64,000 bases of DNA from Myxococcales bacterium (GTDB taxonomy: Bacteria > Myxococcota > Myxococcia > Myxococcales > JAKAPL01): assembly GCA_021783235.1 (NCBI GenBank), contig JAJXUD010000013.1, forward strand, positions 6,182 through 70,181. The letters are read 5' to 3'. Under the pieces are notes generated by a model. It saw only the letters and a list, made by a program, of their open reading frames with translations, ran no database searches and had not been told where the DNA came from. Position numbers and translations under genes: made by a program. Shown here piece after piece: positions 8,541 through 51,321 of this stretch (the stretch's first letter is position 1; each line of letters starts with the position of its first letter).

Positions 8541-8618
8541 CCGAGCGAAAGTTTGAAGGTCTTCTGAACCGGCGCGTTGGAGAGGTCGAGGCACGGATTT
8601 CCAGACGGAGGATCGCCC

Positions 8619-9821: not shown

Positions 9822-9832
9822 GCAGCCGCCCG

Positions 9833-9863
9833 GGCCCGCCTCCGCCAGCCGCGGGGGCGGGCC
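9833..9863. terminator. GC-rich hairpin between convergent genes (candidate bidirectional terminator)
   Basis: GGCCCGCCTCCGC-cagcc-GCGGGGGCGGGCC forms a 13 bp stem with one U:G pair and a 5 nt loop. It lies between the stops at 9821(+) and 9873(-). There is no U-tract. Confidence 0.45.
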
Positions 9864-9872
9864 TTCGCGTCT

Positions 9873-10826: not shown

Positions 10827-10878
10827 GTGAGCGCCTCCCAAAGATAGGGTATAAGGGGTCCGCGCTTCCTTTCAAGCC

Positions 10879-11760: not shown

Positions 11761-11763
11761 ACC

Positions 11764-35178: not shown

Positions 35179-35247
35179 CCTGGGGTCACCCGACCGCTCG
35201 ACGAGGCGCCGGCCTCGCAACAACGGAGCCCGGCGCCTCGGGATTTC

Positions 35248-35652
35248 CTACTTGGCCTCGGGCGCCTCGACCGGGGCGGGGGCCGCAGCGCTCCCCTCGC
35301 CGCCAGCCTCCTCCCGCTCGATGCGGGCCGCGCGGCCCTGGAGGTCGCGCAAGTAGAAGAGCCGCGCCCGGTGTACCTTCCCGGCGCTCACGACCTCGAT
35401 CTTGTCGATGCGCGGGCTGTGCGTCGGGAAGATGCGCTCGACCCCGACGCCGTAGCTGACCTTACGAACCGTGAAGGTCGCTCGGTTGTACCCCTGCCGG
35501 CGACGGATGATCACGCCCTCGAACACCTGGACGCGCTCCTTGTCGCCTTCGCGGATCTTCGTGTGCACCCGGACCGTGTCGCCGGGACGGAAAGGGGGGA
35601 GATCCTTGCGGAGCTGACGCCCTTCGAGAAACTCCAACGCTTCTTGCCTCAT
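35248..35652 (-). CDS. rplS: 50S ribosomal protein L19
   Basis: From ORF 35248..35805(-), with the start moved to ATG 35652 after GGAGGAG. It overlaps the trmD stop as ATGA. Blocks are [29 protein letters not shown] and [17 protein letters not shown]. Confidence 0.9.
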
Positions 35653-36380
35653 CGTTCTCCTCCAGTCTGAAACTTCGAGAGCTCCGCCCGGTCTCCACGG
35701 GCCAATAGATCCGGCCGGCGCCGGCGCGTCCGGTCGAGCGACTGCTCCCGCCTCCACTGCTCGATTTCGCCGTGATTTCCAGAGAGCAGCACCGCCGGCA
35801 CGCACCGGCCGCGAAACTCGGGCGGGCGGGTGTAGTGCGGATATTCGAGCAGTCCCTCCTCGAAGCTCTCGGAGCGAACGGACTCCTCGTTGCCGAGAAC
35901 TCCAGGACGAAGCCGCGCCACCGCGTCGATCGCTGCGAGCGCCGCGAACTCTCCGCCGCTCAGGACGAAGTCCCCGAGCGAGAGTTCACCATCCACGAAG
36001 TCGCAGACCCGCTCGTCGATTCCCTCGTAGCGTCCGCAGACGAGGGTGAGCCCCGGGCCGCGGGAGAGTTCGAGGGCCCAACGCTGCTCGAAGCGGCGTC
36101 CCTGCGGCGAGAGGAGAAGGACGGGATTCGCCGGAGATCGGCTGCGCGCCGCCTCGATGGCTCCAACGAGCGGCTCGGGCTTCATCACCATTCCGGCGCC
36201 GCCGCCGTACGGGGCGTCGTCGGTCACGCGGTGGCGCCCCTCGGCGAACTCTCGGATGTCCGTCACCTGAACCGAGAGCAGTCCGCGCTCCTGGGCCTTA
36301 CCGAGGAGACTCTCCGCGAGTGGTCCTTCGACCATCCGCGGGAAGAGCGTCAACAGCTCGATCTGGAATGGCGCCGACAC
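35649..36380 (-). CDS. trmD: tRNA (guanine37-N1)-methyltransferase
   Basis: ORF 35649..36380(-), 243 aa. Blocks are [52 protein letters not shown] and YPHYTRP. Confidence 0.9.
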
Positions 36381-36383
36381 CGG

Positions 36384-36941
36384 TTACTCTCTCCTCGTCC
36401 CACGTCCCAACTCGATCTCGACCGCGAGCGTCACACGCCGAGCCGTCCGATCCACCGAAGCGATCGTCCCATCTCGGATCGGCGCGAGTTCCTCGCGATC
36501 CCCTCCTCTTACCACCAAGAAGTCCTCTTTCCCATCGGTCTCCAACCCGACGATCGTCCCGAGCCGCTGCCCCCCGGAATCGACCGCGTCCAGGCCGACC
36601 AGATCGACGAGGTAGATCTCGTCTCTCTCCAACGCCGGCAGCGACTCCCGGTCGACCGAAAGGGTCATTCCCACGAGCAGCTCCGCCGCCTCCCGGCTCT
36701 CCACTCCGTCGAATCGAACCACCCAGCCTCGCGTCCGACGCGAGGTCTCCCGCACTACCCACCAGCGGCCGCTCTCCCCAGACCGACCCGCCCAGACGCC
36801 AAGACCCGGCATCCAGAGCGCCGAGTCTCGATTGAAGGAGTGAATCGCGACTTCGCCCCGCAGCCCCTGCGGCTTCGTGACGATCCCGATTTCGATGGGA
36901 TGTCGCGGCGGACCCGATGGCCCGTCAGCCTGGCTCCGCAA
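36384..36941 (-). CDS. rimM: 16S rRNA processing protein RimM
   Basis: From ORF 36384..36986(-). The blocks IEIGIVTKPQGLRGEVAI and a PRC-barrel C-terminus are present. The start is uncertain. TTG 36941 overlaps the upstream gene by 17 nt. TTG 36986 overlaps it by 62 nt. Confidence 0.75.
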   Translation of the reverse strand: MRSQADGPSGPPRHPIEIGIVTKPQGLRGEVAIHSFNRDSALWMPGLGVWAGRSGESGRWWVVRETSRRTRGWVVRFDGVESREAAELLVGMTLSVDRESLPALERDEIYLVDLVGLDAVDSGGQRLGTIVGLETDGKEDFLVVRGGDREELAPIRDGTIASVDRTARRVTLAVEIELGRGTRRE

Positions 36942-37182
36942 TCTCCACCGCCGTCCGCTGCCCGCCCTTCCGATCTGCCGCGGCAACGACCGCCCGGATT
37001 GCCTTGACGGTACGCCCCTGCCGGCCGATGATCTTGCCGACCTCCTGTGGGGCCACGCGCACGGTCAAGACCGGCTGACCGTTCTTGTCCGTCTCTTCGA
37101 CGGCAACGGCGGTCTGGTCGTCGACCAGACCGCGCACGAGGTACTCGAGGAGTTCGCGCACGGGCCGATCCGACGGGATCAT
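36925..37182 (-). CDS. KH-domain RNA-binding protein (YlqC/UPF0109 family)
   Basis: ORF 36925..37182(-), 85 aa, with [15 protein letters not shown] (GxxG KH loop). Its start overlaps the rpsP stop as ATGA. Confidence 0.8.
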
Positions 37183-37433
37183 TTCGCCGGTGCAGCCGGC
37201 TTGGCGTGCCGCAGGAGGCTACCGACGGCCTCGGTCGGCTGTGCGCCAGCCCCGAGCCAGTGCTCGATGCGGGGCTGATCCAGCTTCACCGCCGGCGGCT
37301 CGACCGTGGGGTCGTAGCTGCCGACCTCCTCGATGAACCGACCGTCACGGGGCATCCGCTCGTCAGCGACGACGATACGGTAGAACGGATTCTTCTTGGC
37401 CCCCGCTCGGGAGAGCCTCAACTTCACTGACAT
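37179..37433 (-). CDS. rpsP: 30S ribosomal protein S16
   Basis: ORF 37179..37433(-), 84 aa, beginning [38 protein letters not shown]. The RBS is GGAGG. Confidence 0.9.
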
Positions 37434-37534: not shown

Positions 37535-38185
37535 CTAGAACGTGTACTTGACCTGCGGGTAGATGGCGAGCGCCATCATGTTGACCGTCGATGGCACGAA
37601 ACGGGCGGAAATCTCCAGCCCGATCGTGAAGTGATCGAAGCGCGTCGCGTACTCGATCCCGGTAGCCGCGCCTCCGGTCGGAACCCAGACGTCTCCGGCG
37701 CCCGCCGAGGCGCCCATGTCGGCGCGCGGGAGCGGGGTGAAATCGGCCATGCCGCCGAACACTCGGAACGGGACATAGAGCCGGTCGAACACCTCGAGCT
37801 TGTAGCTCAGGACCAGGTCCAGCGCCGCCATCGTGAAGGTGCTCGAGCCCTGAGCACTCGACCCGGAGCAGTAGGCGTCGCTCGGGCCGTAGCAGTCGCC
37901 AGCGCTCGGAGCAAGCTGGAACTGCACCCCAACCGCAAAAGCGTCGAAGATGTCGTAGCCGACGCCCAGGCTGAGGAACGCCTCCATGTTCGAGTAGCCG
38001 TCGGCACCCCCGAGAGTCATGAAGGTGCCGAGCGCGGTCTCGGCGTAAAAGCCCGTCCGGACGGGCTCGGGACTGCCGGTCGAGCTGACGTTCGAAAGAT
38101 CGAGCTGCTCCGCCTGGGCTGGTGCGGCCGCGATCACGGCAAACACGAGGACGGCGAGGCTGAGGCTCAGGTGACGCGCAATCAT
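37535..38185 (-). CDS. small OM beta-barrel protein, GltH/NfsH position
   Basis: From ORF 37535..38230(-), with the start moved to ATG 38185. The signal peptide is MIARHLSLSLAVLVFAVIAAAPAQA. The product is 216 aa with alternating beta texture and ends in QVKYTF. Confidence 0.65.
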   Translation of the reverse strand: MIARHLSLSLAVLVFAVIAAAPAQAEQLDLSNVSSTGSPEPVRTGFYAETALGTFMTLGGADGYSNMEAFLSLGVGYDIFDAFAVGVQFQLAPSAGDCYGPSDAYCSGSSAQGSSTFTMAALDLVLSYKLEVFDRLYVPFRVFGGMADFTPLPRADMGASAGAGDVWVPTGGAATGIEYATRFDHFTIGLEISARFVPSTVNMMALAIYPQVKYTF

Positions 38186-38215
38186 GGTGTCGTTCCTCGG
38201 GGTGTCGTTCCTCGG
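38186..38215 (-). repeat. perfect 15-bp direct tandem duplication in the gene junction
   Basis: The plus strand reads ggtgtcgttcctcgg twice, at 38186-38200 and 38201-38215. The minus strand reads CCGAGGAACGACACC twice, immediately upstream of ATG 38185. Each copy carries a GAGGA SD-like core. Confidence 0.9.
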
Positions 38216-38230
38216 GGGATCAACGGTCAA

Positions 38231-40093
38231 TCAGTCCTCGCCAGCAGCCTTGAACACCCAGGGATAGGTGACGAACACCTGGCCGCCCCCCTTGGGCTCG
38301 GGGAACCGCCAGCGCCGCACGCGGGTCATCATGCAGTTTTCGACGTTCGAGTTGTTCATCGTGGTCTCGTTCACGTTGGCATCCGAAACCGCACCCGCGC
38401 CGTCGATCGTAAAGGCCACCGAGACCTTCCCGTAGAGATTCGGGTTCTTGTTCAACTCCGTCTCGTAGCAGTACTTGATCTCGTTCCAGTGCCGTCGAAT
38501 GATCTTCGCGATGATGTCCTTGGAGAGCGACCCCTGGACGATCGTCCGACCCGGGACGATGCGCGTGTCGCCCTTCCCGCGCCCGCCGAGGTCGATGCTG
38601 CCGTAGCCACCGCGACCGTGGCCGTTACCCTTGGTGCCGAGGCCGCCGATCCCGAGCGCGGTACCTCCGCCGCCCGAGCCCGTGCCGCGGCTTCCGAGTC
38701 CACCGACGCCGTGGGCGTCACCCATTCCCGCGCCGCCCTTGAGGCCACCGAGCGCATTGTTGATGCCGGTTCCGAGGCCGCCGGGGCCGAAGATGTTCGA
38801 GGCCGCGCCATCCGCTCCACCGAGGGCACCGAGCAGCCCCGCCTTCATGATCTTCGTCCGGTCCTCTTCGCGCTTGTGGGCGTTGACGATCGGGGAGCCC
38901 TTCTTCGAAGGAGCCGCATCCTCCTTCTTGGCCTCTTTCTTTCCGAACTTGCCTTCCTTGCCCTTCGCCTTGGCGCCTTCCTTGACGCCCGAGAGGTCGA
39001 ACTTCTTCTTCTTCTCCTTCTCAGGCGGCTTGATGATGAGCTTCGCAAACGCGCTCGGATTCTTGAAGAGATCTTCAGAGAGCATGTCGCTGCTCGTCGG
39101 CGTGATCCAGAAGCCGATGAGCAGCACGAGGTGAAGCATGAAAGCGACCGACAGCACCTTCGTGAAGTAGAAGTCGACCGAGTCGAAGAGGCTACTCTTC
39201 AACCGCTTCGCCGGACGGATCCAGCGCAGCACGAGGTTCGACGTCTCGAACGTCACGAGGCAGCGGTCGGCGAGGCCCAAGGTGAGTTCGCCCGAAGCCT
39301 CGCTCTCCTTGCCGTCGCGCCGGACGATCCCCTTGGCGCCCGGTGGAATGTGGATCCCGCCCGTGGCTGTCACGAGTTCGAAGCCCTCGCCGAGCGCCTC
39401 CGAGTAGACCCGGACGTCGCTCTGGTCGCCAGGGCCGATCTTGACCGGCTGTCCCACCGGGAAGCTCCGGACGTCGATGACGGTATCGCCCCAGAGCAGC
39501 GCAACCTCGAGTTGCCGATCGTTCTCGACGGGACGCTCGTCCTCCGAGAACTCCTCGTTCAACATCCGATTGCCGTTCGGCCCGAGCGCGAGAGTCGTCC
39601 CCTGAAAGCTCGAGAGGGCGCCCTCCACCGGACGCTTCGCCGCAGGCTTCACCGCCACCGCGGGAGAGGTCGAAGCTCGCGCCTTGACCGTCTCAGCGCG
39701 AACACCGGAGCGACGGCCCTCGGTCACGGTCCGCTCCTCGTCGGTCTGCTCGGCTTGACGAACGGTGACGACGTCCGTGGCATCTGCATCCCCGAAGATC
39801 ACCTTGATGCGCGTGGTGCCAACCTCGATGTAATCCCCCGAGGCGAGCACCGTCGGCTCCTTGATGGTCTGCCCCTGAAGCCGGGTGCCGGAGTCGCTGC
39901 CAAGGTCGAGCAGGATCACGTCCGAGCCCTTCACCTTCAGCATGACGTGAGCCGCCGAAACCTTCGGATCCGCGAGCCGGATGGTCGCCGATGGACCACT
40001 GCCGACGATCGCGCTGTCTTGGGTCAGAAGCTCGTCCCGCATCAGCCCGTCCGGGCCCTGGATCTTCAGCTGGATCTTCGGGATGGTCGCCAT
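38231..40093 (-). CDS. gltG: FHA - TM - Gly-rich linker - TonB_C-like (AgmX/PglI C-terminal domain) protein; GltG/PglI/NfsG family
   Basis: ORF 38231..40093(-), 620 aa. The FHA-like N-terminus is SAIVGSGPSATIRLADPKVSAAHVMLKVKGSDVILLDLGSDSGTRLQG. The TM helix is VLSVAFMLHLVLLIGFWI. A Lys/Glu-rich stretch and then a Gly-rich stretch follow. The C-terminus is IRRHWNEIKYCYETELNKNPNLYGKVSVAFTIDGAGAV...RWRFPEPKGGGQVFVTYPWVF. Confidence 0.8.
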   Translation of the reverse strand: MATIPKIQLKIQGPDGLMRDELLTQDSAIVGSGPSATIRLADPKVSAAHVMLKVKGSDVILLDLGSDSGTRLQGQTIKEPTVLASGDYIEVGTTRIKVIFGDADATDVVTVRQAEQTDEERTVTEGRRSGVRAETVKARASTSPAVAVKPAAKRPVEGALSSFQGTTLALGPNGNRMLNEEFSEDERPVENDRQLEVALLWGDTVIDVRSFPVGQPVKIGPGDQSDVRVYSEALGEGFELVTATGGIHIPPGAKGIVRRDGKESEASGELTLGLADRCLVTFETSNLVLRWIRPAKRLKSSLFDSVDFYFTKVLSVAFMLHLVLLIGFWITPTSSDMLSEDLFKNPSAFAKLIIKPPEKEKKKKFDLSGVKEGAKAKGKEGKFGKKEAKKEDAAPSKKGSPIVNAHKREEDRTKIMKAGLLGALGGADGAASNIFGPGGLGTGINNALGGLKGGAGMGDAHGVGGLGSRGTGSGGGGTALGIGGLGTKGNGHGRGGYGSIDLGGRGKGDTRIVPGRTIVQGSLSKDIIAKIIRRHWNEIKYCYETELNKNPNLYGKVSVAFTIDGAGAVSDANVNETTMNNSNVENCMMTRVRRWRFPEPKGGGQVFVTYPWVFKAAGED

Positions 40094-40126
40094 GTTCTCT
40101 CCGCGGTCCGCGTCGACGGTCGATGC

Positions 40127-40408
40127 CTAGAGGTTGTCCACCGACTTCTGCAGCTCGGGGTTGAAGTTGTCGCGGAGCTTGATGAGCGAGCCGAACTTGG
40201 TCTTCTTCCGGTTCAAGACGTAGGAGCCCTCGGGCTTCGTCAGGTCACCCTCGAGGGTCACGTCATTGAAATCGATGACGGTCTTCTTCTTGTAAACCGT
40301 TCGATCGGTCTCGTGGACCACCTTGTCGTCGTCGGCACGAGCCGAGGCAGCGGAAACCAGCGCGGCCGCGCCGGCCGCCAGCGCGAGCATCAGGGAGAGA
40401 GCCTTCAT
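40127..40408 (-). CDS. small secreted protein, GltF/NfsF position
   Basis: From ORF 40127..40426(-), with the start moved to ATG 40408 after AGGAGG. The product is 93 aa with signal peptide MKALSLMLALAAGAAALVSAASARA. The mature part is Lys/Asp-rich. Confidence 0.55.
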   Translation of the reverse strand: MKALSLMLALAAGAAALVSAASARADDDKVVHETDRTVYKKKTVIDFNDVTLEGDLTKPEGSYVLNRKKTKFGSLIKLRDNFNPELQKSVDNL

Positions 40409-40463
40409 CGTGCCTCCTAGTTCCACGCCGGGTCGAAAGGCGGGCGCATTTTAGCCGAAGCGA

Positions 40464-40482
40464 GCCCCCGAAGGAAGGGGGC
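40464..40482 (-). other. intra-operon hairpin just after the TPR-lipoprotein gene
   Basis: GCCCCC-gaaggaa-GGGGGC (6 bp GC stem) lies 5 nt downstream of the stop at 40488, within the 79-nt gap before the next gene. Confidence 0.4.
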
Positions 40483-40487
40483 CTACT

Positions 40488-41891
40488 CTACTCGTCCTTT
40501 TCTTCGTCTGCGTCGGGACCGCCTCCGGTGGCGGTCTTGGCTGGCGCTGGCGCAGCAGCTGGCGCTGGCGCAGCAGCTGGCGCTGGCGCAGCAGCTGGCG
40601 CTGGCGCAGCGGCCGGCGGCGCGCTGCCCGACGAGCTGTCCTTAGCGACCTTCAGGGCGGCAGGGGCCGCGGGCGCGTTGGGAGTCGGCGTCACGTCGCC
40701 CTTCCCCTCCTGCGCCTTTGGCGCCGGAGCTGGGCTCGGCGGTGGAGGACCCGATTTCAGCGAGTGCTCCACCGTCTCGAGGAGGTGCTGCGCATCGGTC
40801 CGCCGGGCCAATTCGCCGGAGAGGCCCAGGTAGCGGACGAGGTACTCCTTCGACTTCGGTAGGTCCTTCAGGTTCTTGTAGGCGAGGGCCAAGCCGTAGA
40901 CCGCGTCCGGCTGGTCGGGGAGGATGGAGAGCACCCGATCGAACTCCACGGAGGCTTCCTTCGGCTTCTTGAGCCCTTCGAGCGCCCACGCCGAGCCGAG
41001 GTGCCACTCCCAGCGGTTCGGCGAACCCTGCGCCGCGCGGCCGAACATCGTACTCGCGGTTCGGTAGTCCCGGTAGGCGAGCGCCACGATGCCGATGTTG
41101 GCGAGACCCGGCGCGAAGCTCTGGTCGAGCTTGACGGCGCGCTGGAACTGCCCAAGGGCCGCCCGACGATCGTCGAGCTTCAGATCCACCATGCCGAGGT
41201 TGTTGGCGACGCCTGGGTCCTTCGCGTCGAGCTTCTTCGCGTTCGCGCTGATGAACTCCGCCATCCGGAAGTTCCCGAGGTCGTAGTAGACCAGCGCAAG
41301 GTTCTTGTAGCCGTCGGGATCCTTCGGCGCCCGCGCGAGCAGCCGGTGGACCGTCTCGATGGCCTTCGAGTACTCGTGCGCCAGGCGACAAGAGACGACG
41401 AGGTCGTTCAAGAGCTGCACGTCGAAGGGGTGCTTGATGAGCGCCCGCCTGAAGAGATCGATGGCCTTCCGAGGCTGATCCTGCAGCCGAAAGACGTGTC
41501 CCAGGTTCAGAACAGCCGGGAGATGATCGGGATCCAGCTCGAGCGCCGCCTCGTACTCCTTTTCGGCCGCTCGCAGGTCCCCCCCCTGCTCCGCCAGGAG
41601 TCCGAGATCGAAGTGCGCCGAAACGTCCTTCGGATTCTTCTCCAGCGCCTTCTGGAACGCTTCGCGCGCCGCCGCCCGATCGCCCCGCTGCGCAGCGCCA
41701 ACGCCCTTCGAGAACCAGTCCGATTCGGACGGCTCGGGGGGCGGCCGAACCTCCTGAGCCAAGGGCTGGGTCTTCACCTCGGCCTTGGTCCCTCCGCAGG
41801 CCCCGATGGCGAGCATGGCGCCGAGGAACGGTAGGCCAACGAGCGCCGGGAACTTTCGAGCTTCGCGTCTCACGGGAGTGGCTCCTTGCAT
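40488..41891 (-). CDS. gltE: TPR-repeat lipoprotein; GltE/AglT/NfsE family
   Basis: ORF 40488..41891(-), 467 aa. The lipobox is AMLAIGA-C. There are about 8 TPR units (for example AHFDLGLLAEQGGDLRAAEKEYEAALELDPDH). The tail is Ala/Pro-rich. The start lies 3 nt after the upstream stop. Confidence 0.75.
   Translation of the reverse strand: MQGATPVRREARKFPALVGLPFLGAMLAIGACGGTKAEVKTQPLAQEVRPPPEPSESDWFSKGVGAAQRGDRAAAREAFQKALEKNPKDVSAHFDLGLLAEQGGDLRAAEKEYEAALELDPDHLPAVLNLGHVFRLQDQPRKAIDLFRRALIKHPFDVQLLNDLVVSCRLAHEYSKAIETVHRLLARAPKDPDGYKNLALVYYDLGNFRMAEFISANAKKLDAKDPGVANNLGMVDLKLDDRRAALGQFQRAVKLDQSFAPGLANIGIVALAYRDYRTASTMFGRAAQGSPNRWEWHLGSAWALEGLKKPKEASVEFDRVLSILPDQPDAVYGLALAYKNLKDLPKSKEYLVRYLGLSGELARRTDAQHLLETVEHSLKSGPPPPSPAPAPKAQEGKGDVTPTPNAPAAPAALKVAKDSSSGSAPPAAAPAPAAAPAPAAAPAPAAAPAPAKTATGGGPDADEEKDE
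40543..40610 (-). repeat. 18-bp tandem repeat, about 3.8 copies, inside the coding sequence
   Basis: ggcgctggcgcagcagct occurs three times plus a partial fourth copy. It encodes AAPAPA repeats in the C-terminal tail of the TPR lipoprotein. Confidence 0.9.
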
Positions 41892-41894
41892 GGC

Positions 41895-44800
41895 CTAGTA
41901 CCCTCCGCTCCCTTCCTCGTCCCTGGCCGGAGCCGCCTTCTTCGGCGGCTCGGGCGCGGGCGCCGGCTCCCCGGAGGAGGTCGGACTCGTCGACACCGTC
42001 TCGAGCGGCGCGACAGCGAAGAACTCGCTGCCCTGGTACGGCAGTGAGTGGATGTCACCATACGCGCCGGGGCGGTACTTGTTCTCCTGATCCTCCGCCT
42101 TGAGCACCCAGTCGTCGTAGACGTTCAGCTCCGAGCTCTTCTGAAGCGCCTTCTCGATCGCCTCGATGCCCTTGTCCTCGAGCGGGAGCGCGCGATTCTC
42201 TAGCTCGGCCCGGTACTGGTCGAGCAGATCCGGCGACAGCCCCTTCGGGTCCGGGGAATCGGTCAGGCTCTTCGCGAAGTCGAGATAGGCGAAGCCGATC
42301 CGCGTCAACGCCGCGATTCCGTAATCGCCGTCCCCGATGGCGAGCACCTGGGTGTAGGCCTTCTCGACCTCCGGGAGGGTCTTCATCTTCTCCTTGAGTT
42401 GCCCCTTGAGCTTGTTCGGGTTGTCGAACCGAATGGCCGTGTATCGGCTCCAGAGCGGATCGACCTCATGGAAGCGGAGCTGAGCATAGGCGGCGAGATT
42501 CCCGTCGTCCTTCTGCTCGGCCGGCGAGAGGCGCGAATAGGACTTGAGCAACTCCTCGCCGATCTTGACTGCCGAGCGGTCGTCGCCCGACCTGCGGAGC
42601 GCCTCCATCTGCTTGTACTTGGCGTAGTAGATCTTGCCCGGCGTCAGCTCACGCCCGTAAGTCTTCATGTAGACGTCGAAGGCCTTGGCCGCGCTCTTCC
42701 AGTCTTTCTGCTTCTCGTCGATGAGGCCGATGTTGAACTGGATCTCCGGTGCGTCCTTGCGGTCCTTGAACTCTTTTAGGTATTGGCCGTAGAGCGCGAT
42801 GGCCTTGCCGAAGTTGCCGAGCCCTTCGTTCCAGAGCGCCGCATTGAAGAGATCGTCGGCCGACTTGGGATCCTTCGGGTAGAGTTTGACGAACTGCTCG
42901 TAGTCGGCGGCGGCCTTCTCGAAGTCGGCCTCGCGCTCATAGTCGTGAGCGAGCGCCTCCAAGGTCTTCGAGGCGAGGTCCGACTTCGGGTAGTCGCGCA
43001 GGAGCTTCTCGCCCTCGGGAACCGCGAGGTCGAGCTTGTCCCCGTTCTCGTAGCCGACCATCGAGTTGAAAAGAGCCTTGGGAGCGAACTCGCTCTTGGG
43101 GAAGAACTTCACGAACTCGTCGAAGAGCTTCCCGGCCCGGCCATAGTCCTTCTGCTCGAAGATCTGCTGCGCGAGCGTGAACTGGGTGCGCTGGATGATG
43201 CTCATGACGCGTTGGGCGAACGGAGAGCCTGCCTTCGCGAGCTGATGATTCGCGTAGAACTTCTTTGCGAGATCGTTGAGCTCCGCCACTTCCCCCTTCG
43301 CGGAGAGGGCATCCATGATGAGGTCGGCCGCCTTCTGGGCGAGTTCGTTCGTGGGCCACTTGGTGATGACCTCGCCCAGCCGCTTTCCTGCCTCCACGAA
43401 GTGGAAGTGGTCGTAATAGAGGAAGGCCGCCTTGTACCGGACCGTCACCTCGTCGTTGCCACCCGGGAAGAGCTTCACGTAGCGATCCGAGGCGTCGGCG
43501 AGCTTCTGCTCCCAGTGCGGAATCGGCTCCTCCTGAGCGTTCTTGCCGGCCTTCGTGATCATGCCGTGCTTCTGCACGACACCCTTCTTCTGCTTCTCGT
43601 CGATCTTCTCGTTGTCGGAGAGCTCGCGCTGCTGCATGCGGCCCTGCGCGATCGCCACGAGCTTCTCGTAGCAGAGGATGGCGTCGTAGGCCGCCGACTT
43701 GGCGTAGTAGCCCTTCGGGTCCTTCTTCGAGACGAGCTCGTACTGCTCGGCGGCCTTGTCCCATTCCTGCAGGGCGTAGAGAATCTCGGCGTAATAGAAG
43801 CGCAGGTTGGACGCGTTCTCGGATTCCGGAAAGTTGTCGAGGTACTCCTTGTAAATGTCGCGAGCGAGCCGGTAAGTGGCGACGCTCTTCGTCTTCTGCG
43901 CCTCCTGATGGTAGTCCGTCACGAGCTCGCGCATCGAGCCCTCGGTCAGGTCGTACGCCGAGGCCAGTGCCGACTTGTTGCGCGAGTTGGCCTGGGCCCA
44001 GTCGCTCTTCGGTCCGTAGACCTGGACGAGCTTCTTGAGCTCGACGCGGACCTGATCACGCATCCGCTGCCCCTCGTAAGCCTTGACGATGTTCGCCTGG
44101 TAGGCCGGATCCTCCGGGTCCGTCGGATCCTCGCTGATGATCATCCGGTATGTCCGGATGGCCGGATCCCACTTTCCAGCATCGAAATAGACATTCCCGA
44201 GCCGGGCCATCAGGTGGTGGGTCTTCTTCCGGGAGGCGTGCTGCGCGTAGTAGTCGCGCGCCTGGTCGACGGCATTGAGCTGCGACCAGGAGAGGATCAT
44301 GTCCCCGAGCGCCTCGTTTTTGAGCTGGATCTTGTCCTTGCGCTCGCCCCGCGGCCCCTTGCGGGCGGCGTTCTCCTGGTAGGAGACCACCTTCTCGAAC
44401 TTGTGGATGGCGTCCTCGTAAGCGCCCGAGTTGAAGTCGCACCAGGCGAGCTTGTAGAGAGCGAAGGCGTAGATCTGTGGGACATTGCAGGCGAGCGCCT
44501 TCTCGTAGGCCTTGCGGGCTCGCTCGAGGTCGTTCGAGTTGAAGAAGTGCTCACCCATCTGCACGTATGCGTCCGGCACGAACTTGCTGTCGGGGTACTG
44601 CCGGATGAGGTCCCAGTAACGCGCGATGGCGTCCTTCTTCTTACCCACCTCGTAGAGGTTGTAGGCCAGGTTGAAGAGGACCTCGTCCTTGCGTGGATAG
44701 GTCGGGTAGTCGTCCAGGATCTTCTGGTAGAGGTTGATCGCCTCCTGCCGGTAGAGATCCGACTGGCGCGTGCTCAGGGTTGGCTCTCGCGCCCCCTTGG

Positions 44801-45320
44801 CGCCCGAATTCTGACGCTGCTGGTACTGCTGGTAGGCCTGATCGTAGGCCGCCATTTCGCCGTAGTAGACGAACTTGCTCTTCTCCCACCAGAGCTCGGC
44901 GAGCTGAAAGAGCAGGTCGGCCTTCTGCGGGCCATCTTGGATCTTTGGGATGATCTTCTTGATTTCGACGATCTCTTCGTCCCGCTTTTCGTCCGCCTTG
45001 GCGTCGCGCTCGGACGCCGACATCGTCGACTGGTAGCGCGCCGGACCGGTGCGAACCTTCTTCTCGACGACCGCCGACTTGGCGGAGAGGATGCTCGCCG
45101 ATTTGGGCTTCGCGGCCCCGGAAGACTCGGAGTCGTCTTCGTGGGACGACGTCCCCCGGGCGGAGGGTTTCTTCTTCTTTTTCTTCTTCTTCGCGAGCGC
45201 CCGGGGTACGGCCACCGTCTCGGCGAGCAGCGCGGCAGTGCCCCCCACGGCGAGAAGCCAAACGAACGCGAGCGCCGCGGCGCGCAGCCAGCGAAGCGGG
45301 GCGAGACGAAGCGGGCTCAT
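41895..45320 (-). CDS. gltD: large membrane-anchored TPR protein; GltD/AgmU/NfsD family
   Basis: From ORF 41895..45353(-), with the start moved to ATG 45320, 1 nt after the upstream stop; 1141 aa. It has an N-terminal TM helix (AAALAFVWLLAVGGTAALLA) followed by a K8 run. About 900 aa of TPR-like repeats follow (YPRKDEVLFNLAYNLYEVGKKKDAIARYWDLIRQYPDSKF and similar). Confidence 0.8.
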   Translation of the reverse strand: MSPLRLAPLRWLRAAALAFVWLLAVGGTAALLAETVAVPRALAKKKKKKKKPSARGTSSHEDDSESSGAAKPKSASILSAKSAVVEKKVRTGPARYQSTMSASERDAKADEKRDEEIVEIKKIIPKIQDGPQKADLLFQLAELWWEKSKFVYYGEMAAYDQAYQQYQQRQNSGAKGAREPTLSTRQSDLYRQEAINLYQKILDDYPTYPRKDEVLFNLAYNLYEVGKKKDAIARYWDLIRQYPDSKFVPDAYVQMGEHFFNSNDLERARKAYEKALACNVPQIYAFALYKLAWCDFNSGAYEDAIHKFEKVVSYQENAARKGPRGERKDKIQLKNEALGDMILSWSQLNAVDQARDYYAQHASRKKTHHLMARLGNVYFDAGKWDPAIRTYRMIISEDPTDPEDPAYQANIVKAYEGQRMRDQVRVELKKLVQVYGPKSDWAQANSRNKSALASAYDLTEGSMRELVTDYHQEAQKTKSVATYRLARDIYKEYLDNFPESENASNLRFYYAEILYALQEWDKAAEQYELVSKKDPKGYYAKSAAYDAILCYEKLVAIAQGRMQQRELSDNEKIDEKQKKGVVQKHGMITKAGKNAQEEPIPHWEQKLADASDRYVKLFPGGNDEVTVRYKAAFLYYDHFHFVEAGKRLGEVITKWPTNELAQKAADLIMDALSAKGEVAELNDLAKKFYANHQLAKAGSPFAQRVMSIIQRTQFTLAQQIFEQKDYGRAGKLFDEFVKFFPKSEFAPKALFNSMVGYENGDKLDLAVPEGEKLLRDYPKSDLASKTLEALAHDYEREADFEKAAADYEQFVKLYPKDPKSADDLFNAALWNEGLGNFGKAIALYGQYLKEFKDRKDAPEIQFNIGLIDEKQKDWKSAAKAFDVYMKTYGRELTPGKIYYAKYKQMEALRRSGDDRSAVKIGEELLKSYSRLSPAEQKDDGNLAAYAQLRFHEVDPLWSRYTAIRFDNPNKLKGQLKEKMKTLPEVEKAYTQVLAIGDGDYGIAALTRIGFAYLDFAKSLTDSPDPKGLSPDLLDQYRAELENRALPLEDKGIEAIEKALQKSSELNVYDDWVLKAEDQENKYRPGAYGDIHSLPYQGSEFFAVAPLETVSTSPTSSGEPAPAPEPPKKAAPARDEEGSGGY

Positions 45321-45321
45321 T

Positions 45322-46830
45322 CTACCGGGCCTCCTGCCGCAGTGCGCAGCCATTCTTGAGCGTGTACTCGTAGTAGCCGATCTCGTCGATCCAGAACTCG
45401 CCCTCGAACGCCCAGTAGTCCCAGGTGGGATCGGGCACTCGGGCCCGGAAGAGTCGCTGGCTCGAGAGCTTGGCGGTCGAGTCGACGCCCCGCTCGAGAA
45501 GCTCCTTCTCGGCCTTCACCGTCTCGAAGAGAATGATCTCGGCCTGGCTATCAAAGCCCTCGATCACCCTCGAGGCGTACTTGAGCCGGTCCTGGACGAA
45601 CTTGCCGGTCAGCTTGACGAGAGTCTGCGTCTGCGTATCGATGAGCTGATCGAGCTCCTGCGAGAGGCCGCTCTCCTTCCAACCAGAGGCACCCTCGACC
45701 ACCCGCTTTTCCCGCGCGAGTTCGTTCAGGTAGTCCTTGAAGCCGCGTACACGTTGATTGCCGAGCAGGTAGTTCACTACCGCGAGCGGAAGCTCGCCCT
45801 GCGGCTGCTCGATCAGGTTCCAGTAGTAGTCGTAGTCGCGATCACCCGCCAGCGCCGCCTTGATCTTCTCGTCCATCGGCAGGTAGATGCGGCGGAAGCC
45901 CTTGATGGCACCCTTCGCCTCCGGGTAGAGGCAGCCGAAGAAATAGATCGTCGCCTTGAGGATCCACGACTCTGGAGCGAAGGCACCGGCGAACTGGGGA
46001 GCGTGGAGCGCCTCGAGGCTCCCGAGCGCCTTCCCCGGGTGCCCGTCCTGAAACTCGGCCCAGCCATTCTCGAAAAGCGCCTGATCCCAGTAGTCGGAGA
46101 ACCGCGGCACCGCTTCGAAGTAGCGCACCGCGGCGTCGTACTGCCCGAGGCCGTAGTAGGTGCGGGCGAGCGCCAATCGGGTGAGCTGCTGGACGTTCTG
46201 CAGATCGTAGTACTTGCCGTTCGAGGGAAGCGCCATGACCTCCTGGAACAGCTTGAGCGCCTGCTGCGGCGCCTTTTGGACGAGGGAGAGTCCGTAGAGG
46301 TAGCGCGCGCGAGCGAAGTAGCTGCTCTTCTTCGGCACCGCCGAGAGGAACTCCTGCGCCTCGTCGATCTTGTTCGCTCGGTACGAGAGCGTACCGACGA
46401 GGTAGTTGACCTTGTTCAGGGTCTTCTCGGGCAATCGCGAGAAGTCGTTGCCGTAAGCTCGATTCAAGACCGACGGGATGATGGCCCCGTCGTGCAGCTT
46501 CTCGGCGACCCGGACGAGGCCGTCGACCGCCTTGTAGTAGTACCGGTGGCGCGCCCCCTGCTTGACGATGAGACCGAAATACTGAAACGCGCCCTGGTAC
46601 AGCTTCATCTTGTAGAACGACTGGGCGAGATAGTACTCGGCCTTCTGCCGATCCACCGCGTCGGTGCTGTTCTCGACCACTCGGTAGAAATCGGCCGCCG
46701 CCGCCTCGAAGCGGCCCGAGTTGTAATCGTTGACGCCCGGGCTCAGCTCCTCTTCCTGGGCCGAGGCGGCCGCGGCGGCGATGCAGAGCGCCGCGAGGAG
46801 GAGCGAACTGACCAACCTGCGAATCGCCAT
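45322..46830 (-). CDS. secreted TPR-like protein, GltC/NfsC position
   Basis: ORF 45322..46830(-), 502 aa. The signal peptide is LLLAALCIAAAAASA. TPR-like helices include GRFEAAAADFYRVV and GQYDAAVRYFEAV. The assignment rests on architecture plus synteny only. Confidence 0.65.
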   Translation of the reverse strand: MAIRRLVSSLLLAALCIAAAAASAQEEELSPGVNDYNSGRFEAAAADFYRVVENSTDAVDRQKAEYYLAQSFYKMKLYQGAFQYFGLIVKQGARHRYYYKAVDGLVRVAEKLHDGAIIPSVLNRAYGNDFSRLPEKTLNKVNYLVGTLSYRANKIDEAQEFLSAVPKKSSYFARARYLYGLSLVQKAPQQALKLFQEVMALPSNGKYYDLQNVQQLTRLALARTYYGLGQYDAAVRYFEAVPRFSDYWDQALFENGWAEFQDGHPGKALGSLEALHAPQFAGAFAPESWILKATIYFFGCLYPEAKGAIKGFRRIYLPMDEKIKAALAGDRDYDYYWNLIEQPQGELPLAVVNYLLGNQRVRGFKDYLNELAREKRVVEGASGWKESGLSQELDQLIDTQTQTLVKLTGKFVQDRLKYASRVIEGFDSQAEIILFETVKAEKELLERGVDSTAKLSSQRLFRARVPDPTWDYWAFEGEFWIDEIGYYEYTLKNGCALRQEAR

Positions 46831-46839
46831 GGAGAACCC

Positions 46840-47910
46840 CTAGAAGAGGACGCTGACGCCGCCGAAGAAGAGAAGGTTGTTGAGCACGTCCGAGCTGACG
46901 TCGGAGAGGAGGTCGTGCGCGATCGTCAGCTCCGTGGATGAGTAGGGACTGCTCTGGAACGCCTGGGCGTTACAGCCCGCAGACGACGCCGGCAACTGGC
47001 CGCTGGACGAAAGGGCGGTGACGTCGGAGAGCGAGCAGCCGTTGATGTGGTCGACTCGCGCCGTGTAGATGAGATCGCGGACCTCGAGCCGCAGAGCCAC
47101 CCGCTCGCCGAGCAGCACGCGGAAACCCACGCCCAGATCCCCGAGGAACCGCCAGCCGGCGTCCCCGAACTCGACCGGGGGGCTGTTCGGATCCTGGGCG
47201 CTCGGACCGGGCGTCAGCTGCACGGTGGTCTTGCCCATCCCCGCGCCCGCGTTGATGACGAAGCGGAACTGCGCGAGCGTACCGTCGTAGAAGGCAAACT
47301 TGCCATAGATCGGCGCGACCTCGAAACCGGCGAGCGCGCCGTACTGGAGGCTCAGGTCGTCGGCGGCCTGGGCGCGCGCATGCAGACCGAGAAGGTTCGA
47401 GCTGAGAGAGGTCTGCCCGGAGACGTAGTCATAGAGAGCAAGGAGCTGCAGCGCGAAGTTCTCCTGGAGCGCGTAGCTCACGCCGAGGCCGACCCCGTCT
47501 TCGTTGGTGAACTTGCCGTTGAGCTGAATGGCCGCGGGGTAGAGGGTGAGCTCTCCCCTCCCCGCCGCGGTGTAGTCCTTCCGCTCGACGGTGTGGATGA
47601 GCTCATTCGGGCTCTCCGAATCGGCTCGACCTTCCAGATACCCGGGCACCACCGTCTGGCTGGTGGCCGGCTGGGGCGCCGCGGGCGCTGCGGCGGGCGA
47701 GGATGGCTCGCTCGGCGCGGCATGAAGCGGAGCGCGATGATCCGAGGAAGACGATGACGGCGCAGCCGTCTGGCTCGGGGCCACGGGCGCCGGCTGCGAG
47801 GCGGCCGGGCCTTCGTCGTCATCCTCGTCGTCCTGGGCGCGCGCCAGCGCAGGCGCGAGCGCCACCATGAGCGCGACGAGAACCGTCCAGCGGAACCTTT
47901 CGGTGTTCAC
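46840..47910 (-). CDS. OM beta-barrel protein with Pro/Ala-rich N-terminal linker; GltA/GltB (NfsA/NfsB) family
   Basis: ORF 46840..47910(-), 356 aa. The GTG start follows AAGGAGA. It has a signal peptide (VLVALMVALAPALARA), the paralogue motif EVAPIYGKFAFY, and ends in GGVSVLF. Confidence 0.7.
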   Translation of the reverse strand: MNTERFRWTVLVALMVALAPALARAQDDEDDDEGPAASQPAPVAPSQTAAPSSSSSDHRAPLHAAPSEPSSPAAAPAAPQPATSQTVVPGYLEGRADSESPNELIHTVERKDYTAAGRGELTLYPAAIQLNGKFTNEDGVGLGVSYALQENFALQLLALYDYVSGQTSLSSNLLGLHARAQAADDLSLQYGALAGFEVAPIYGKFAFYDGTLAQFRFVINAGAGMGKTTVQLTPGPSAQDPNSPPVEFGDAGWRFLGDLGVGFRVLLGERVALRLEVRDLIYTARVDHINGCSLSDVTALSSSGQLPASSAGCNAQAFQSSPYSSTELTIAHDLLSDVSSDVLNNLLFFGGVSVLF

Positions 47911-47937
47911 TTGGCGATCTCCTTGGGCTGGTCCGGA

Positions 47938-48792
47938 CTAGAACGTCCAGCCGAGGCCGATGTCCGCGAAGAGCGAGCTCGTGAGGCCGTGGGCCACGGT
48001 GACGCTGGCCGGGAGCGACGAGCCGAACTGGCTGGCCGTGAAGCTCGTGGGGTAGGAGTCGCTCCAAAGGTAGTCGCGCAACCCCAGCGTCAGCCCGCCT
48101 TGACCCAGGAAGATGAAGCGAAGGCCGGTGGCCGCGCTGGCGAGCCAGCTGTACTGCGTCTGATAGAGCGTCTCGTAGCCCGCGGAGTTCTGCGCGCAGT
48201 CGCCGTTGCCGTTGCCGGCGCTCGCGTCGTAGCTCGTGCAGAAGGAGACCGACTGGTGCCCGAACTGCGCGACGCCGCCCGCCGCCTGCACGTACCACTT
48301 GAAGTGGATCGGCAGCTCAGTGAGGAGCGAGAGCTTGCCGTAGATCGGCTCCCAGCGGAGCCCGAGTTCGGCATTCGGGCCGTTGAGGATCCAGAGGTTC
48401 GGCAGATCGGACATGGTCTTCGGGTTCGAGGCGGCGCCCTGGAAGATGCTGTGGGTGCCGCTGCAGCCCTTCCCAGCCAGGGCGGTGGCGCCGGGGTTCT
48501 GCGCCTGGCACTGGAGATCCGTGGTGCCGCCCATCGCGTAGCCGACCATGATGTCGAGGGCCCACGCCTCGCTGAAGTGGATCGCGACGTCGATCTGCGG
48601 GTTGATCGCCTGGGTGAGCGAGTTCTGGAGCGAAAGCCCGCCGACCAGACCGACCTCGATGTCCCCGCTGTCGGTATAGAGCCGATTGCGGACGACGACC
48701 GCCTCGGGCTCGGCAGCGGAGGCGACGGCCGCTCCAAAGAGGCCGGCGGCGAGAGTGACGGCTAGAAGACTCGAGGCTGCCTTTCGAATCAC
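47938..48792 (-). CDS. OM beta-barrel protein; GltA/GltB (NfsA/NfsB) family, first gene of the operon
   Basis: ORF 47938..48792(-), 284 aa. The GTG start follows AGGAG. It has a signal peptide (LLAVTLAAGLFGAAVASA), the paralogue motif WEPIYGKLSLL, and ends in IGLGWTF. Confidence 0.7.
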   Translation of the reverse strand: MIRKAASSLLAVTLAAGLFGAAVASAAEPEAVVVRNRLYTDSGDIEVGLVGGLSLQNSLTQAINPQIDVAIHFSEAWALDIMVGYAMGGTTDLQCQAQNPGATALAGKGCSGTHSIFQGAASNPKTMSDLPNLWILNGPNAELGLRWEPIYGKLSLLTELPIHFKWYVQAAGGVAQFGHQSVSFCTSYDASAGNGNGDCAQNSAGYETLYQTQYSWLASAATGLRFIFLGQGGLTLGLRDYLWSDSYPTSFTASQFGSSLPASVTVAHGLTSSLFADIGLGWTF

Positions 48793-48897: not shown

Positions 48898-49566
48898 CTA
48901 CTTCGTGGGCTTGATGGCGGGCTTGATGACCAAGAGACCGCCGTTTGCGCCCGGGATCGCGCCCTTGACGAGGAGCAGGTTCCGGTCGGCGGCGATCTCC
49001 ACCACCTCTAGGTTCTGAACGGTCACCTTCTCGTCGCCGTAGTGACCAGGCATGCGCTTGTTCTTCCAGACCTTGCCAGGGGTCTTGCGCTGTCCGACCG
49101 CGCCCATGTGGCGGAAGAACTCGTGGGTTCCGTGCGTCGAGACGTGGCCCGCCATCTGGTGCCGCTTGAAGACGCCGGCGAAGCCGCGGCCCTTGGTGGT
49201 CCCGGTCACGTCGACCTTGGAGCCCTTTTCGAACATCCCGATCGGTAGCGCGTCGCCCACGTTGAACTTGCCGAGATCCTCGGGCGCCACGCGGAACTCT
49301 CGCACCCAACGCTTCGGCGTCGCGTTCGCCTTCTTGAAGAAGCCGACTCGCGGCCGGCCAACCCGAGCCTCGCGCGTCTCGGGCCTCGTGTCCTTCGCGC
49401 CGATCTCGCCAAAACCGACCCGAAGGGCAGCGTAGCCCTCCTTTTCCGGCGTCCGCTTCTCGAGCACGAGGCAGGGCCCCGCCTCGATGACCGTCACGGG
49501 GACCGAGTTCCCCTCGTCGTTGAAGACCTGCGTCATTCCGATTTTCTTGCCGAGGATGCCCAACAT
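48898..49566 (-). CDS. rplC: 50S ribosomal protein L3, isolated from the S10 operon
   Basis: From ORF 48898..49587(-), with the start moved to ATG 49566 after GGAGG; 222 aa. Blocks are MLGILGKKIGMTQVF, VDVTGTTKGRGFAGV, GAVGQRKTPGKVWKNKRMPGHYG, VTVQNLEVVEI and RNLLLVKGAIPGA. Confidence 0.85.
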   Translation of the reverse strand: MLGILGKKIGMTQVFNDEGNSVPVTVIEAGPCLVLEKRTPEKEGYAALRVGFGEIGAKDTRPETREARVGRPRVGFFKKANATPKRWVREFRVAPEDLGKFNVGDALPIGMFEKGSKVDVTGTTKGRGFAGVFKRHQMAGHVSTHGTHEFFRHMGAVGQRKTPGKVWKNKRMPGHYGDEKVTVQNLEVVEIAADRNLLLVKGAIPGANGGLLVIKPAIKPTK

Positions 49567-49729
49567 GTCTGCCTCCGGGTGAATCACGGACTTGCGTGCA
49601 GTCGCGCAGCGGTCCGATGAATGAGGGCGCGAACCCTAGCCGAAGGTCGCTCGGAAAGCAATTGGTCGGAGGTGGGCCGATGTAGGTGTTCCGCTTGGTG
49701 ATTTCGTCCCGCGGGCGCCACTCCAGCCG

Positions 49730-50248: not shown

Positions 50249-50358
50249 GAGGCCCTCCTACCACAGGTTCGCGCCTCCGGTCCTCCTTCGCGACCAGGTG
50301 GGCTGATTTCGAGACCCCCCCTCTGCTCGGAGATCGGGCAGACGGGCGGCCGGGCGAT

Positions 50359-50375
50359 TGGCATGAGCTTGGCAT
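50359..50375 (+). promoter_or_regulatory. candidate sigma54 (-24/-12) promoter
   Basis: tTGGCATGagctTGGCAt against the consensus yTGGCACGnnnnTTGCw. GG and GC have the correct 12-nt register, and 10 of 12 specified positions match. A GGAGG RBS and ATG 50406 follow about 15-30 nt downstream. Confidence 0.45.
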
Positions 50376-50405
50376 TTCCGATCGCTTCGAATGGAGGATC
50401 CAGCC

Positions 50406-50573
50406 ATGAACCCTGCTCGCTCGAAGCCTCAGACGAAGTCTCTCAAGACCACCCTCGGCGAACTCGTCGCCGCGCTCTTCGACGCCGCTCCATCGTCCCA
50501 GGCTGTCGCGAAGGCGCTGTCGTCCCCGCCGCTGCAGCGACGGCTCGGCCGAAAAATCATCGTCCTTCCGTAG
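50406..50573 (+). CDS. hypothetical small protein (55 aa)
   Basis: This is the internal ATG of ORF 50391..50573(+), preceded by GGAGG at 8 nt and by the sigma54-like promoter. The product is MNPARSKPQTKSLKTTLGELVAALFDAAPSSQAVAKALSSPPLQRRLGRKIIVLP. GC3 is only about 78% against over 90% in neighbouring genes, so coding status is uncertain. Confidence 0.3.
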   Translation: MNPARSKPQTKSLKTTLGELVAALFDAAPSSQAVAKALSSPPLQRRLGRKIIVLP

Positions 50574-50976
50574 TCGTCCCAAGCCCTGGCGTGGCCAGCC
50601 GGCCGAGAACCAGGAGCGCGCCGCGCTCGAAGCGGAAGCCATCGATCGAGAGGCCGTGCTCACGACACGCGGCCAAGAGCGCTCGCCCCGTCGGCTGCAG
50701 ATCGAGTACGTCCACGAGCCGCTCCAGCTTCCCCAACCGCTCTCGCAGCTCCACTCGCACGGCGTCCCCCCTTCGCCAAAGCTGCGACCGGGGGGCTCCC
50801 CAGCGCCAGTGGGGAAAAGATCGACCCACTCCTGGAACTTCGGGCCCCAGGGAGACGACCATTCGCGCTCCCCGGGGACGAGCGCCCCGCGAATCGCCCC
50901 GACGAGCGCTCTGGCCGACGCTGGCACCGTCCTTGAATGCATCCCAGCGGGCGACGAAGTGCCCTGGAGGTGAGCC

Positions 50977-51228
50977 ATGGCGCCGAGAAGCGCGCGTGAT
51001 CTGGACGAGTACGACAAGCTCGAAGAGTACGAGCGGCTGCCCGATCTCTTCGATCCAAAGACCGAGGAGGCGGAGTTCGAGCCGGGCGACGCCGAGGAGG
51101 ACGATCTCCCGAAGCGTCGAGGGGCGGCCGAGGACGACGAATCGAGGCCCGAAGGGGAAGAAGAAGAGGAAGACGACGAGGATGACAACGAGGACGAAGA
51201 GGAGAGCGAATCAGACGAGGACGAATGA
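50977..51228 (+). CDS. hypothetical highly acidic small protein (83 aa)
   Basis: ORF 50977..51228(+), preceded by GGAGGTGA. It begins MAPRSARDLDEYDKLEEYERLPDLFDP and ends EGEEEEEDDEDDNEDEEESESDEDE. About half the residues are Asp or Glu. Confidence 0.45.
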   Translation: MAPRSARDLDEYDKLEEYERLPDLFDPKTEEAEFEPGDAEEDDLPKRRGAAEDDESRPEGEEEEEDDEDDNEDEEESESDEDE

Positions 51229-51321
51229 CGCCTACCTCGTCGGCAACGGGTGCTCGTCTACGACCAACGAGCGCCCCGGACACAACCGGCGCTCGGGCTG
51301 CGGCGGGCAGCTTCCGAATGA

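Follow-up and report, generated by a model that had tools for sequence, protein, structure and literature searches.

The closest described relatives of the locus considered here are two paralogous trans-envelope systems of Myxococcus xanthus. The first of these, NfsA-H (MXAN_3371-3378; G3), is encoded by a single operon whose products have lengths of 294/442/512/1202/499/94/682/200 amino acids (aa) (Müller 2010, PMC2875238). It has been described as the A-to-H colinear paralogue without I, J, and K, and it is driven around the spore by the AglRQS motor, winding the Exo/MASC polymer into the coat (PMC3858216; PMC12288465). The second, the gliding machine GltA-K, is split over two loci, G1 (gltD-J) and G2 (gltK-B-A-C), and its proteins differ in size from those of Nfs, with GltC having 673 aa (Luciano 2011); AglR interacts with GltG (PMC3169522). 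The colinear nfsA-H operon, the paralogy between nfs and glt, and the presence of grouped G1 and G2 homologues in Anaeromyxobacter have already been published (Luciano 2011; Wartel 2013). Here we describe a 64-kb stretch of contig JAJXUD010000013.1 from an uncultured Myxococcia lineage, referred to below as the window, in which the minus-strand genes at 37535-48792, termed A to H, very probably constitute an intact operon for an Nfs-type (G3-type) trans-envelope "transducer" of the Agl-Glt/Nfs family.

The cluster consists of eight consecutive, intact, and co-directional genes, and on this point the list of open reading frames (ORFs), a gene call based on the G+C content at third codon positions (GC3), and independent gene calls agree. 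The latter were made on public contigs identical to the window, which belong to third-party annotation (TPA) assemblies of metagenome-assembled genomes (MAGs) (GCA_027417835.1, GCA_027417955.1, and GCA_027417995.1). The GC3 of all eight genes is of the coding type (0.82-0.91). With the start codons chosen in a preliminary description of this DNA, the gaps from A to H are 27, 9, 1, 3, 79, 33, and 45 nt, and the eight-gene arrangement with these gaps proposed there was borne out by the ORF list and the independent gene calls. The protein features listed in the same description (signal peptides, a shared [EA]PIYGK[LF] motif, aromatic C termini, tetratricopeptide repeats [TPRs], and an FHA-transmembrane-Gly-rich-TonB_C series) were also seen when the sequences were inspected. 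Signal-peptide-like N termini are present on A, B, C, F, and H. The motif occurs as EPIYGKL at residue 148 of A and as APIYGKF at residue 199 of B, which in addition has a Pro/Ala/Ser-rich linker, and A, B, and H all have phenylalanine as the last residue, within the C-terminal residues WTF, VLF, and KYTF, respectively. In D, one hydrophobic anchor at the N-terminal end precedes eight consecutive lysines (K8), and E carries a lipobox-like AIGAC sequence. G contains an FHA domain, one transmembrane (TM) segment (residues ~306 to 324), a Gly-rich stretch, and a TonB_C-like end; a PDB sequence search with this protein returned FHA domains only.

When the proteins were compared with family models, seven of the eight matched models of the Glt/Nfs family (Table 1), and on the strength of the NCBIfam matches to OMP_myx_plus, GltC, GltE, CglF, GltG, the AgmX/PglI tail, and CglE, the cluster can be assigned to the Agl-Glt/Nfs family. 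The GltC and GltE models were the best or near-best matches for C and E. The match of C extends over GltC profile positions 113-620 only, and this protein is therefore without the N-terminal extension (~110 residues) of GltC. The NF033764 model, CglF, corresponds to GltF. G was matched over its full length by the GltG model and, in addition, by the NF033768 model of the AgmX/PglI C-terminal domain (118 bits; cut-off, 40). The CglE model, which H matches above the cut-off, is taken here as the GltH model from the position of the gene in the cluster, the equivalence being unchecked. D was the only protein without a family-specific match, since the Pfam and NCBIfam searches returned only TPR and YbgF-like repeats for it.

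Table 1. Coordinates of the Nfs-type cluster and of the flanking ribosomal protein genes in the window, with bit scores against family models for the window proteins and their Corallococcus counterparts
Gene	Coordinates	Strand	Length and predicted product	Model	Bits, window	Bits, Corallococcus	Cut-off, bits
rplC	48898-49587	-	ribosomal protein L3; upstream of A	TIGR03625	255.7		
A	47938-48792	-	284 aa; NfsA-like outer-membrane beta-barrel	TIGR04565 OMP_myx_plus	72.1		60
B	46840-47910	-	356 aa; NfsB-like outer-membrane beta-barrel	TIGR04565 OMP_myx_plus	73.6		60
C	45322-46830	-	502 aa; NfsC-like secreted TPR connector	NF033756 GltC	254	205	450
D	41895-45320	-	1141 aa (longest ORF, 1152); NfsD-like inner-membrane-anchored TPR "pillar"				
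E	40488-41891	-	467 aa; NfsE-like TPR lipoprotein	NF033758 GltE	98.7	129	225
F	40127-40408	-	93 aa (longest ORF, 99); NfsF-like small secreted protein	NF033764 CglF	75.3	73	90
G	38231-40093	-	620 aa; NfsG-like FHA / TM / Gly-rich linker / TonB_C-like protein	NF033760 GltG	351.7	367	650
H	37535-38185	-	216 aa (longest ORF, 231); NfsH-like outer-membrane beta-barrel	NF033755 CglE	123.9	213	70
rpsP, KH-domain gene, rimM, trmD, rplS	35248-37433	-	downstream of H	NCBIfam; gene calls with Pfam			

Related loci were collected with a profile of G homologues and compared by tblastn with the window proteins, which yielded 80 loci from different Myxococcia genomes, including Corallococcus, Archangium, Cystobacter, Hyalangium, Vitiosangium, a MAG labelled Vulgatibacter incomptus, and many other MAGs. 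All 80 have the same gene order as the window as far as each contig reaches, and about 50 of the contigs span the whole of A-H or A-G. The single-operon layout is thus the rule in Myxococcia (80/80 fetched loci). One could regard the cluster as a generic envelope maintenance system of the Tol-Pal/TonB type, or even as TPR and porin genes that lie side by side by chance and have no common function, given that D matches YbgF/CpoB and BamD TPR models, that many generic TPR families match E, and that G has a weak TonB_C match. However, C, E, F, G, and H are matched by family-specific models over their full lengths, the gene order is identical in genome after genome, and no TolQRAB, Pal, or ExbBD genes were found in the window, so that the likelihood of this explanation is close to negligible.

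Within the family, the cluster appears to be an nfs-type (G3-type) orthologue rather than the gliding Glt set. As the nfs comparator we used the cluster of Corallococcus, whose proteins, like the other orthologues, were extracted by a method anchored on high-scoring segment pairs (HSPs). In Corallococcus coralloides they measure 272/384/512/1218/468/94/684/204 aa from A to H, and the locus was taken as nfs on the basis of these sizes, its layout, and the description of nfs in the literature as the sole cluster colinear from A to H. As the true Glt comparator we used P0252, a protein from an exhaustive representative search that reaches 792 bits with the GltG model (cut-off, 650). Its locus (L085) has the gene order F, G, and H, followed by a 595-aa gene and a giant gene of at least 1986 aa that runs off the contig end; we read this last gene as probably GltI-like and the locus as having a G1 layout.

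The nfs-type placement is based on three comparisons. First, in the window and the Corallococcus cluster alike, the scores of C, E, F, and G do not reach the cut-offs of the Glt equivalog models, whereas H passes in both; A to E, which were set against Glt solely through the equivalog models, are sub-threshold in the manner of the Corallococcus proteins. Second, F, G, and H are 2.5 to 4 times closer in bits to the nfs-type/Corallococcus proteins than to the true Glt locus. F is 65% identical to its Corallococcus counterpart (115 bits) but only 40% identical, over a mere 53 aa, to F of L085 (47 bits); G aligns over its full length with nfs-type G proteins (380-485 bits; 43-51% identity) but with true GltG only over the C-terminal 118 aa (122 bits); and H, which is 36-39% identical over its full length to nfs-type H proteins, scores 114 bits against these and 42 bits against L085, where only 52 aa can be aligned. 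Third, in a neighbor-joining (NJ) tree of 82 G homologues (583 columns; 100 bootstraps), the window lineage forms a group (100% support) within the nfs-type clade (96%), apart from the GltG clade (89%). This tree covers one protein and does not include M. xanthus, G4, G5, or Anaeromyxobacter sequences. Of the Glt/Nfs phylogenies suggested in the preliminary description, the one run was that for G. The nfs-like A-H layout proposed there was supported: the gene order matches that of the Corallococcus cluster, and the sequences fall on the nfs (G3) side.

These comparisons also bear on the view that the cluster is an orthologue of the gliding transducer, i.e., GltA-H with G1 and G2 still fused. 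The best-named NCBIfam matches are indeed "adventurous gliding motility" models (GltC, GltE, CglF, GltG, and CglE), and H exceeds the CglE cut-off. On the other hand, the scores of C, E, F, and G are well below the equivalog cut-offs, as are those of the Corallococcus proteins, the matches of F, G, and H to the true Glt locus are restricted to short C-terminal stretches, G is placed apart from the GltG clade, C is short of the ~110 N-terminal residues of the GltC profile, and neither gltI, gltJ, nor gltK follows H. Orthology to Glt was rejected on the sub-threshold scores as calibrated on Corallococcus, the comparison with L085, and the G tree, and we consider it highly improbable. For annotation purposes, the genes should be named Nfs-type (NfsA-H-like), as the "adventurous gliding motility" labels of the best-named models would mislead. 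It is of note that true GltG (P0252) and the nfs-type G proteins share only ~27% identity and that the nfs-type clade holds many deep MAG lineages. This low identity and the breadth of the clade suggest that Glt and Nfs diverged earlier than implied by the "recent duplication in a terminal branch" of the literature.

The window proteins are considerably diverged from those of their nearest named relatives. A shares 30% identity with its counterpart in the Corallococcus nfs-type cluster and 57% with that of the related locus L005; B is 45% identical to B of both Corallococcus and Vulgatibacter; C is 41% identical to Corallococcus C; and D is 41% identical over 1100 aa to Corallococcus D and 47% identical to Vulgatibacter D. 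The lysine run of D (residues 44-51; window positions 45168-45192) directly abuts the membrane anchor and has an RKKK(K) counterpart in loci L005 and L007 but is not kept in Corallococcus or Vulgatibacter. An 18-nt unit repeated in tandem (4.4 copies) at the 3' end of gene E (40540-40618) encodes the (PAAAPA)n tail of the protein. Two copies fewer (12 aa) are present in the otherwise identical contigs L001 and L002 from other samples, so that the repeat number is polymorphic in the population. Among the relatives, a second G-like ORF lies beside G in L019 (11943-13109) and in L021 (8781-9641), L061 has two H genes in the cluster (2382-3603), and an extra B-like gene is inserted between C and D in L062 (3546-4268).

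Partner genes were sought by running Pfam and/or NCBIfam on every coding-like ORF of the 64 kb, including small ORFs and the region at 50.2-51.3 kb. No MotA/TolQ/ExbB, ExbD/TolR, GltJ, GltK, CglB, or GltI-like giant TPR gene was found in the window, and the NF033761 GltJ model matched nothing in it other than the C-terminal domain of G itself. No giant TPR gene follows H, which is succeeded by rpsP, and no small lipoprotein gene precedes A. The public contigs extend the view by ~7 kb on the left (kinase, methyltransferase, transglutaminase, and IS110 transposase genes) and by 1.7 kb on the right (nusG, secE, and rpmG, then the contig end), and no motor, gltIJK, or cglB gene is present in these flanks either. 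The statement of the preliminary description that gltI, gltJ, gltK, CglB, and AglRQS genes are missing from the 64 kb therefore holds and extends to both flanks. Its wording of a "complete machine" is appropriate for the Nfs-type transducer but not for the motor, which is not linked.

In light of these data, the eight proteins are most likely the transducer of a proton-motive-force-driven surface-polymer transport machine whose motor and cargo genes would be located elsewhere. AlphaFold models have been published for the GltG-GltD-GltC-GltABH assembly, in which the GltG linker and TonB_C-like domain lie on the GltD pillar and in which GltE, GltF, and GltC join the pillar to the GltA/B/H barrels (PMC11761067). 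By analogy with these models, G, the predicted link to the motor, would be a bitopic inner-membrane protein that docks with its cytoplasmic FHA domain and TM helix on a TolQR/ExbBD-like proton channel (AglRQS) encoded elsewhere, and its Gly-rich linker and TonB_C-like domain would span the periplasm to D. D would in turn serve as a membrane-anchored TPR pillar carrying E, F, and C, and C would act as the TPR connector that couples this assembly to an outer-membrane module made of the three beta-barrels A, B, and H. Proton flow through the motor would then move the complex, dragging or arranging a secreted surface polysaccharide. What the sequences establish is the content, order, and integrity of the genes, their membership of the family and place on its nfs side, and the gene order and rplC neighbor held in common with the Corallococcus cluster; how the proteins assemble, and that they rely on a motor encoded at another site, is inferred from the described systems.

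The cluster lies between rplC and an rpsP-KH-rimM-trmD-rplS block on the same strand, a placement that had been called unusual for an accessory envelope system. On the rplC side this does not hold, as rplC is directly upstream of A in ~17 of the 80 loci, among them those of cultured Archangium, Cystobacter, Vitiosangium, and Corallococcus and of several MAGs (the rplC-adjacent loci include L005, L007, L017, L022, L033, L079, and L086). On the rpsP side it does, since H is followed by the rpsP-to-rplS block in the window, L005, and L007 alone. The window rplC is solitary, detached from any S10-type operon and without rpsJ or rplD beside it, and the Corallococcus rplC (L086, 10001-10669) is likewise solitary, being preceded by no rpsJ and followed by no rplD. 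In one Corallococcus genome, the genes after the solitary rplC encode proteins of 272/400/512/1218/488/94/684 aa. For M. xanthus, this arrangement suggests that MXAN_3370 may be rplC, an identity that the literature consulted does not give. The synteny comparison, suggested for Myxococcota and made here within Myxococcia, thus indicates that the position of the cluster is inherited and that only the rpsP-side junction is lineage specific; a lineage-specific insertion between ribosomal loci was rejected on the rplC side, where the adjacency is conserved. The gaps between rplC and A (105 nt) and between H and rpsP (101 nt) contain no consensus terminator, and a GC-rich hairpin after H was no better than those of shuffled sequences (z = -1.6). 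The promoter search gave one sigma-70-like site, which is on the wrong strand.

The physiological output is the weakest step of the proposal, and we agree with the preliminary description that it cannot be assigned from the sequence, in which spore-coat assembly and gliding are not separable. Orthology to Nfs favors spore-coat or cell-surface glycan assembly, as for M. xanthus Nfs, and we tentatively put this output first while giving it somewhat less than an even chance. Gliding, or another form of surface transport by an undifferentiated machine of ancestral type, is possible but unlikely. Nevertheless, one related locus, L010, carries a complete nfs-type A-H cluster at 1076-12473 in the MAG labelled Vulgatibacter incomptus, and Vulgatibacter has been reported from pure culture to form neither spores nor fruiting bodies. 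The occurrence of such a cluster in a MAG labelled as a reportedly nonsporulating genus makes a growth-phase role, including gliding, conceivable.

Several observations count against an Nfs assignment with an Nfs-like function. The nfs label of the Corallococcus locus is taken from layout, sizes, and a published statement, without an M. xanthus Nfs sequence; the inner node that unites the window lineage with Myxococcaceae in the single-protein NJ tree has a bootstrap value of only 58%; and D is assigned only through its 41-47% identity to D of nfs-type clusters. Moreover, no motor, Exo/MASC polysaccharide, or sporulation-regulator gene is linked to the cluster in the window or its flanks, and energy source and cargo are consequently putative. 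Finally, the nfs-type cluster in the Vulgatibacter-labelled MAG L010 weakens the transfer of the spore-coat function.

In this context, it is conceivable that the cluster is the only Glt/Nfs machine of its lineage, an undifferentiated ancestral type that serves gliding or general surface transport during growth, and that the Glt loci of M. xanthus are a derived and fast-evolving copy. The spread of nfs-type A-H clusters over deep-branching MAGs and the MAG of the reportedly nonsporulating genus would fit this possibility, as would the packing of the cluster between growth-related genes across two short gaps devoid of a consensus terminator. Furthermore, Luciano 2011 proposed that any bacterium combining AglRQS with GltA-G homologues might glide, and pointed to the grouping of G1 and G2 homologues in Anaeromyxobacter. 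However, deletion of nfs in M. xanthus causes no A-motility defect (PMC2875238), GltI, GltJ, and GltK are each essential for gliding in that species and none of them was found in the window or the flanks available, and cotranscription with the ribosomal protein genes is putative. We therefore regard a sole machine of this kind as doubtful. In its most far-reaching form, which we consider unlikely, the nfs-type A-H operon beside a solitary rplC would be the ancestral Glt/Nfs form in Myxococcia and the sole machine of the deep-branching, possibly nonsporulating window lineage, where it would be expressed during growth together with translation genes and drive gliding or general surface-glycan transport. 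If this were true, M. xanthus Glt would be a derived copy, and the Glt/Nfs split would have occurred far earlier than a "recent duplication in a terminal branch."

Our preferred reading remains that of an Nfs-type transducer operon, and its wider meaning lies in the age and the role of this arrangement. The common layout of all 80 loci, the rplC adjacency in ~17 of them, and the range of carriers, which includes uncultured deep lineages and the Vulgatibacter-labelled MAG, suggest an old nfs-type arrangement whose function may extend beyond spore-coat assembly. The question of the role is testable in culturable relatives, and the window is not the first case to raise a role beyond the spore coat. 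As by-products, the analysis brought to light the conserved pairing of nfsA with a solitary rplC, the wide extent of the nfs-type clade, and the low similarity between nfs-type G and GltG.

With regard to the rest of the window, the GC content is high throughout (0.62-0.77) and changes in a step from ~0.69-0.77 in the left half (1-34000) to ~0.62-0.68 in the right half (36000-64000), which carries rpoBC, ribosomal genes, and the nfs-type cluster. Directly after rplS, on the minus strand, lies a gene at 33343-35223 whose product of 611-626 aa, probably a coiled coil, belongs to no Pfam or NCBIfam family and gives faint Rad50-like matches; the position of this gene is kept in L005 (56% identity) and L007 (44%). 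Rfam and tRNA scans gave no matches anywhere in the window. In the ~1.07 kb between apt and an aldehyde dehydrogenase gene (50249-51321), neither a convincing ORF nor a Pfam match was seen either, and this segment may be the remnant of a gene, contain small genes that escaped annotation, or serve as an extended regulatory region.

Compared with the known systems, the cluster is most similar to M. xanthus NfsA-H, with which it shares the order of the eight genes on one strand, the same domain series, near-matching protein sizes (284/356/502/1141/467/93/620/216 aa in the window), the lack of I, J, and K paralogues, and the absence of a linked motor. The solitary rplC directly upstream is shared with the loci taken as nfs in Corallococcus, Archangium, and Cystobacter. 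What appears to be new here is a diverged Nfs-type cluster, with only 30-65% identity to that of Corallococcus, in an uncultured lineage, with tighter spacing (gaps of 1-79 nt, versus up to 214 bp in nfs) and shorter B, E, and G proteins. In addition, it is followed by rpsP-trmD-rplS on the same strand, whereas a convergent gene follows nfs in M. xanthus. The relationship to M. xanthus GltA-K is one of paralogy: the FHA-TM-TonB_C protein, the TPR pillar, the TPR lipoprotein, the small periplasmic protein, the TPR connector, and the three outer-membrane barrels have counterparts in both, and the motor is presumably of the same type, but Glt comprises two loci together with GltI, GltJ, GltK, and the CglB adhesin, whereas the window has one locus without these. 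Single-locus transducer genes are also a feature of the grouped G1- and G2-type clusters of Anaeromyxobacter (Luciano 2011), which were compared by description only. Components C, D, E, and G also occur in the seven-gene core complex of Gammaproteobacteria, Geobacter, and Fibrobacter (GltC, GltD, GltE, and GltG plus AglRQS; Luciano 2011), whose genes likewise form one locus. There, the motor genes are clustered with the others and the group-A genes A, B, F, and H are missing; in the window, A, B, F, and H are present and motor genes are missing. More distantly, a TonB_C-like domain on a bitopic inner-membrane protein and YbgF/CpoB-like TPR repeats are shared with Tol-Pal and TonB-ExbBD, and energization by a proton channel of the MotA/TolQ/ExbB type would be expected in common, while the outer-membrane barrels and the accessory TPR proteins set the Glt/Nfs systems apart.

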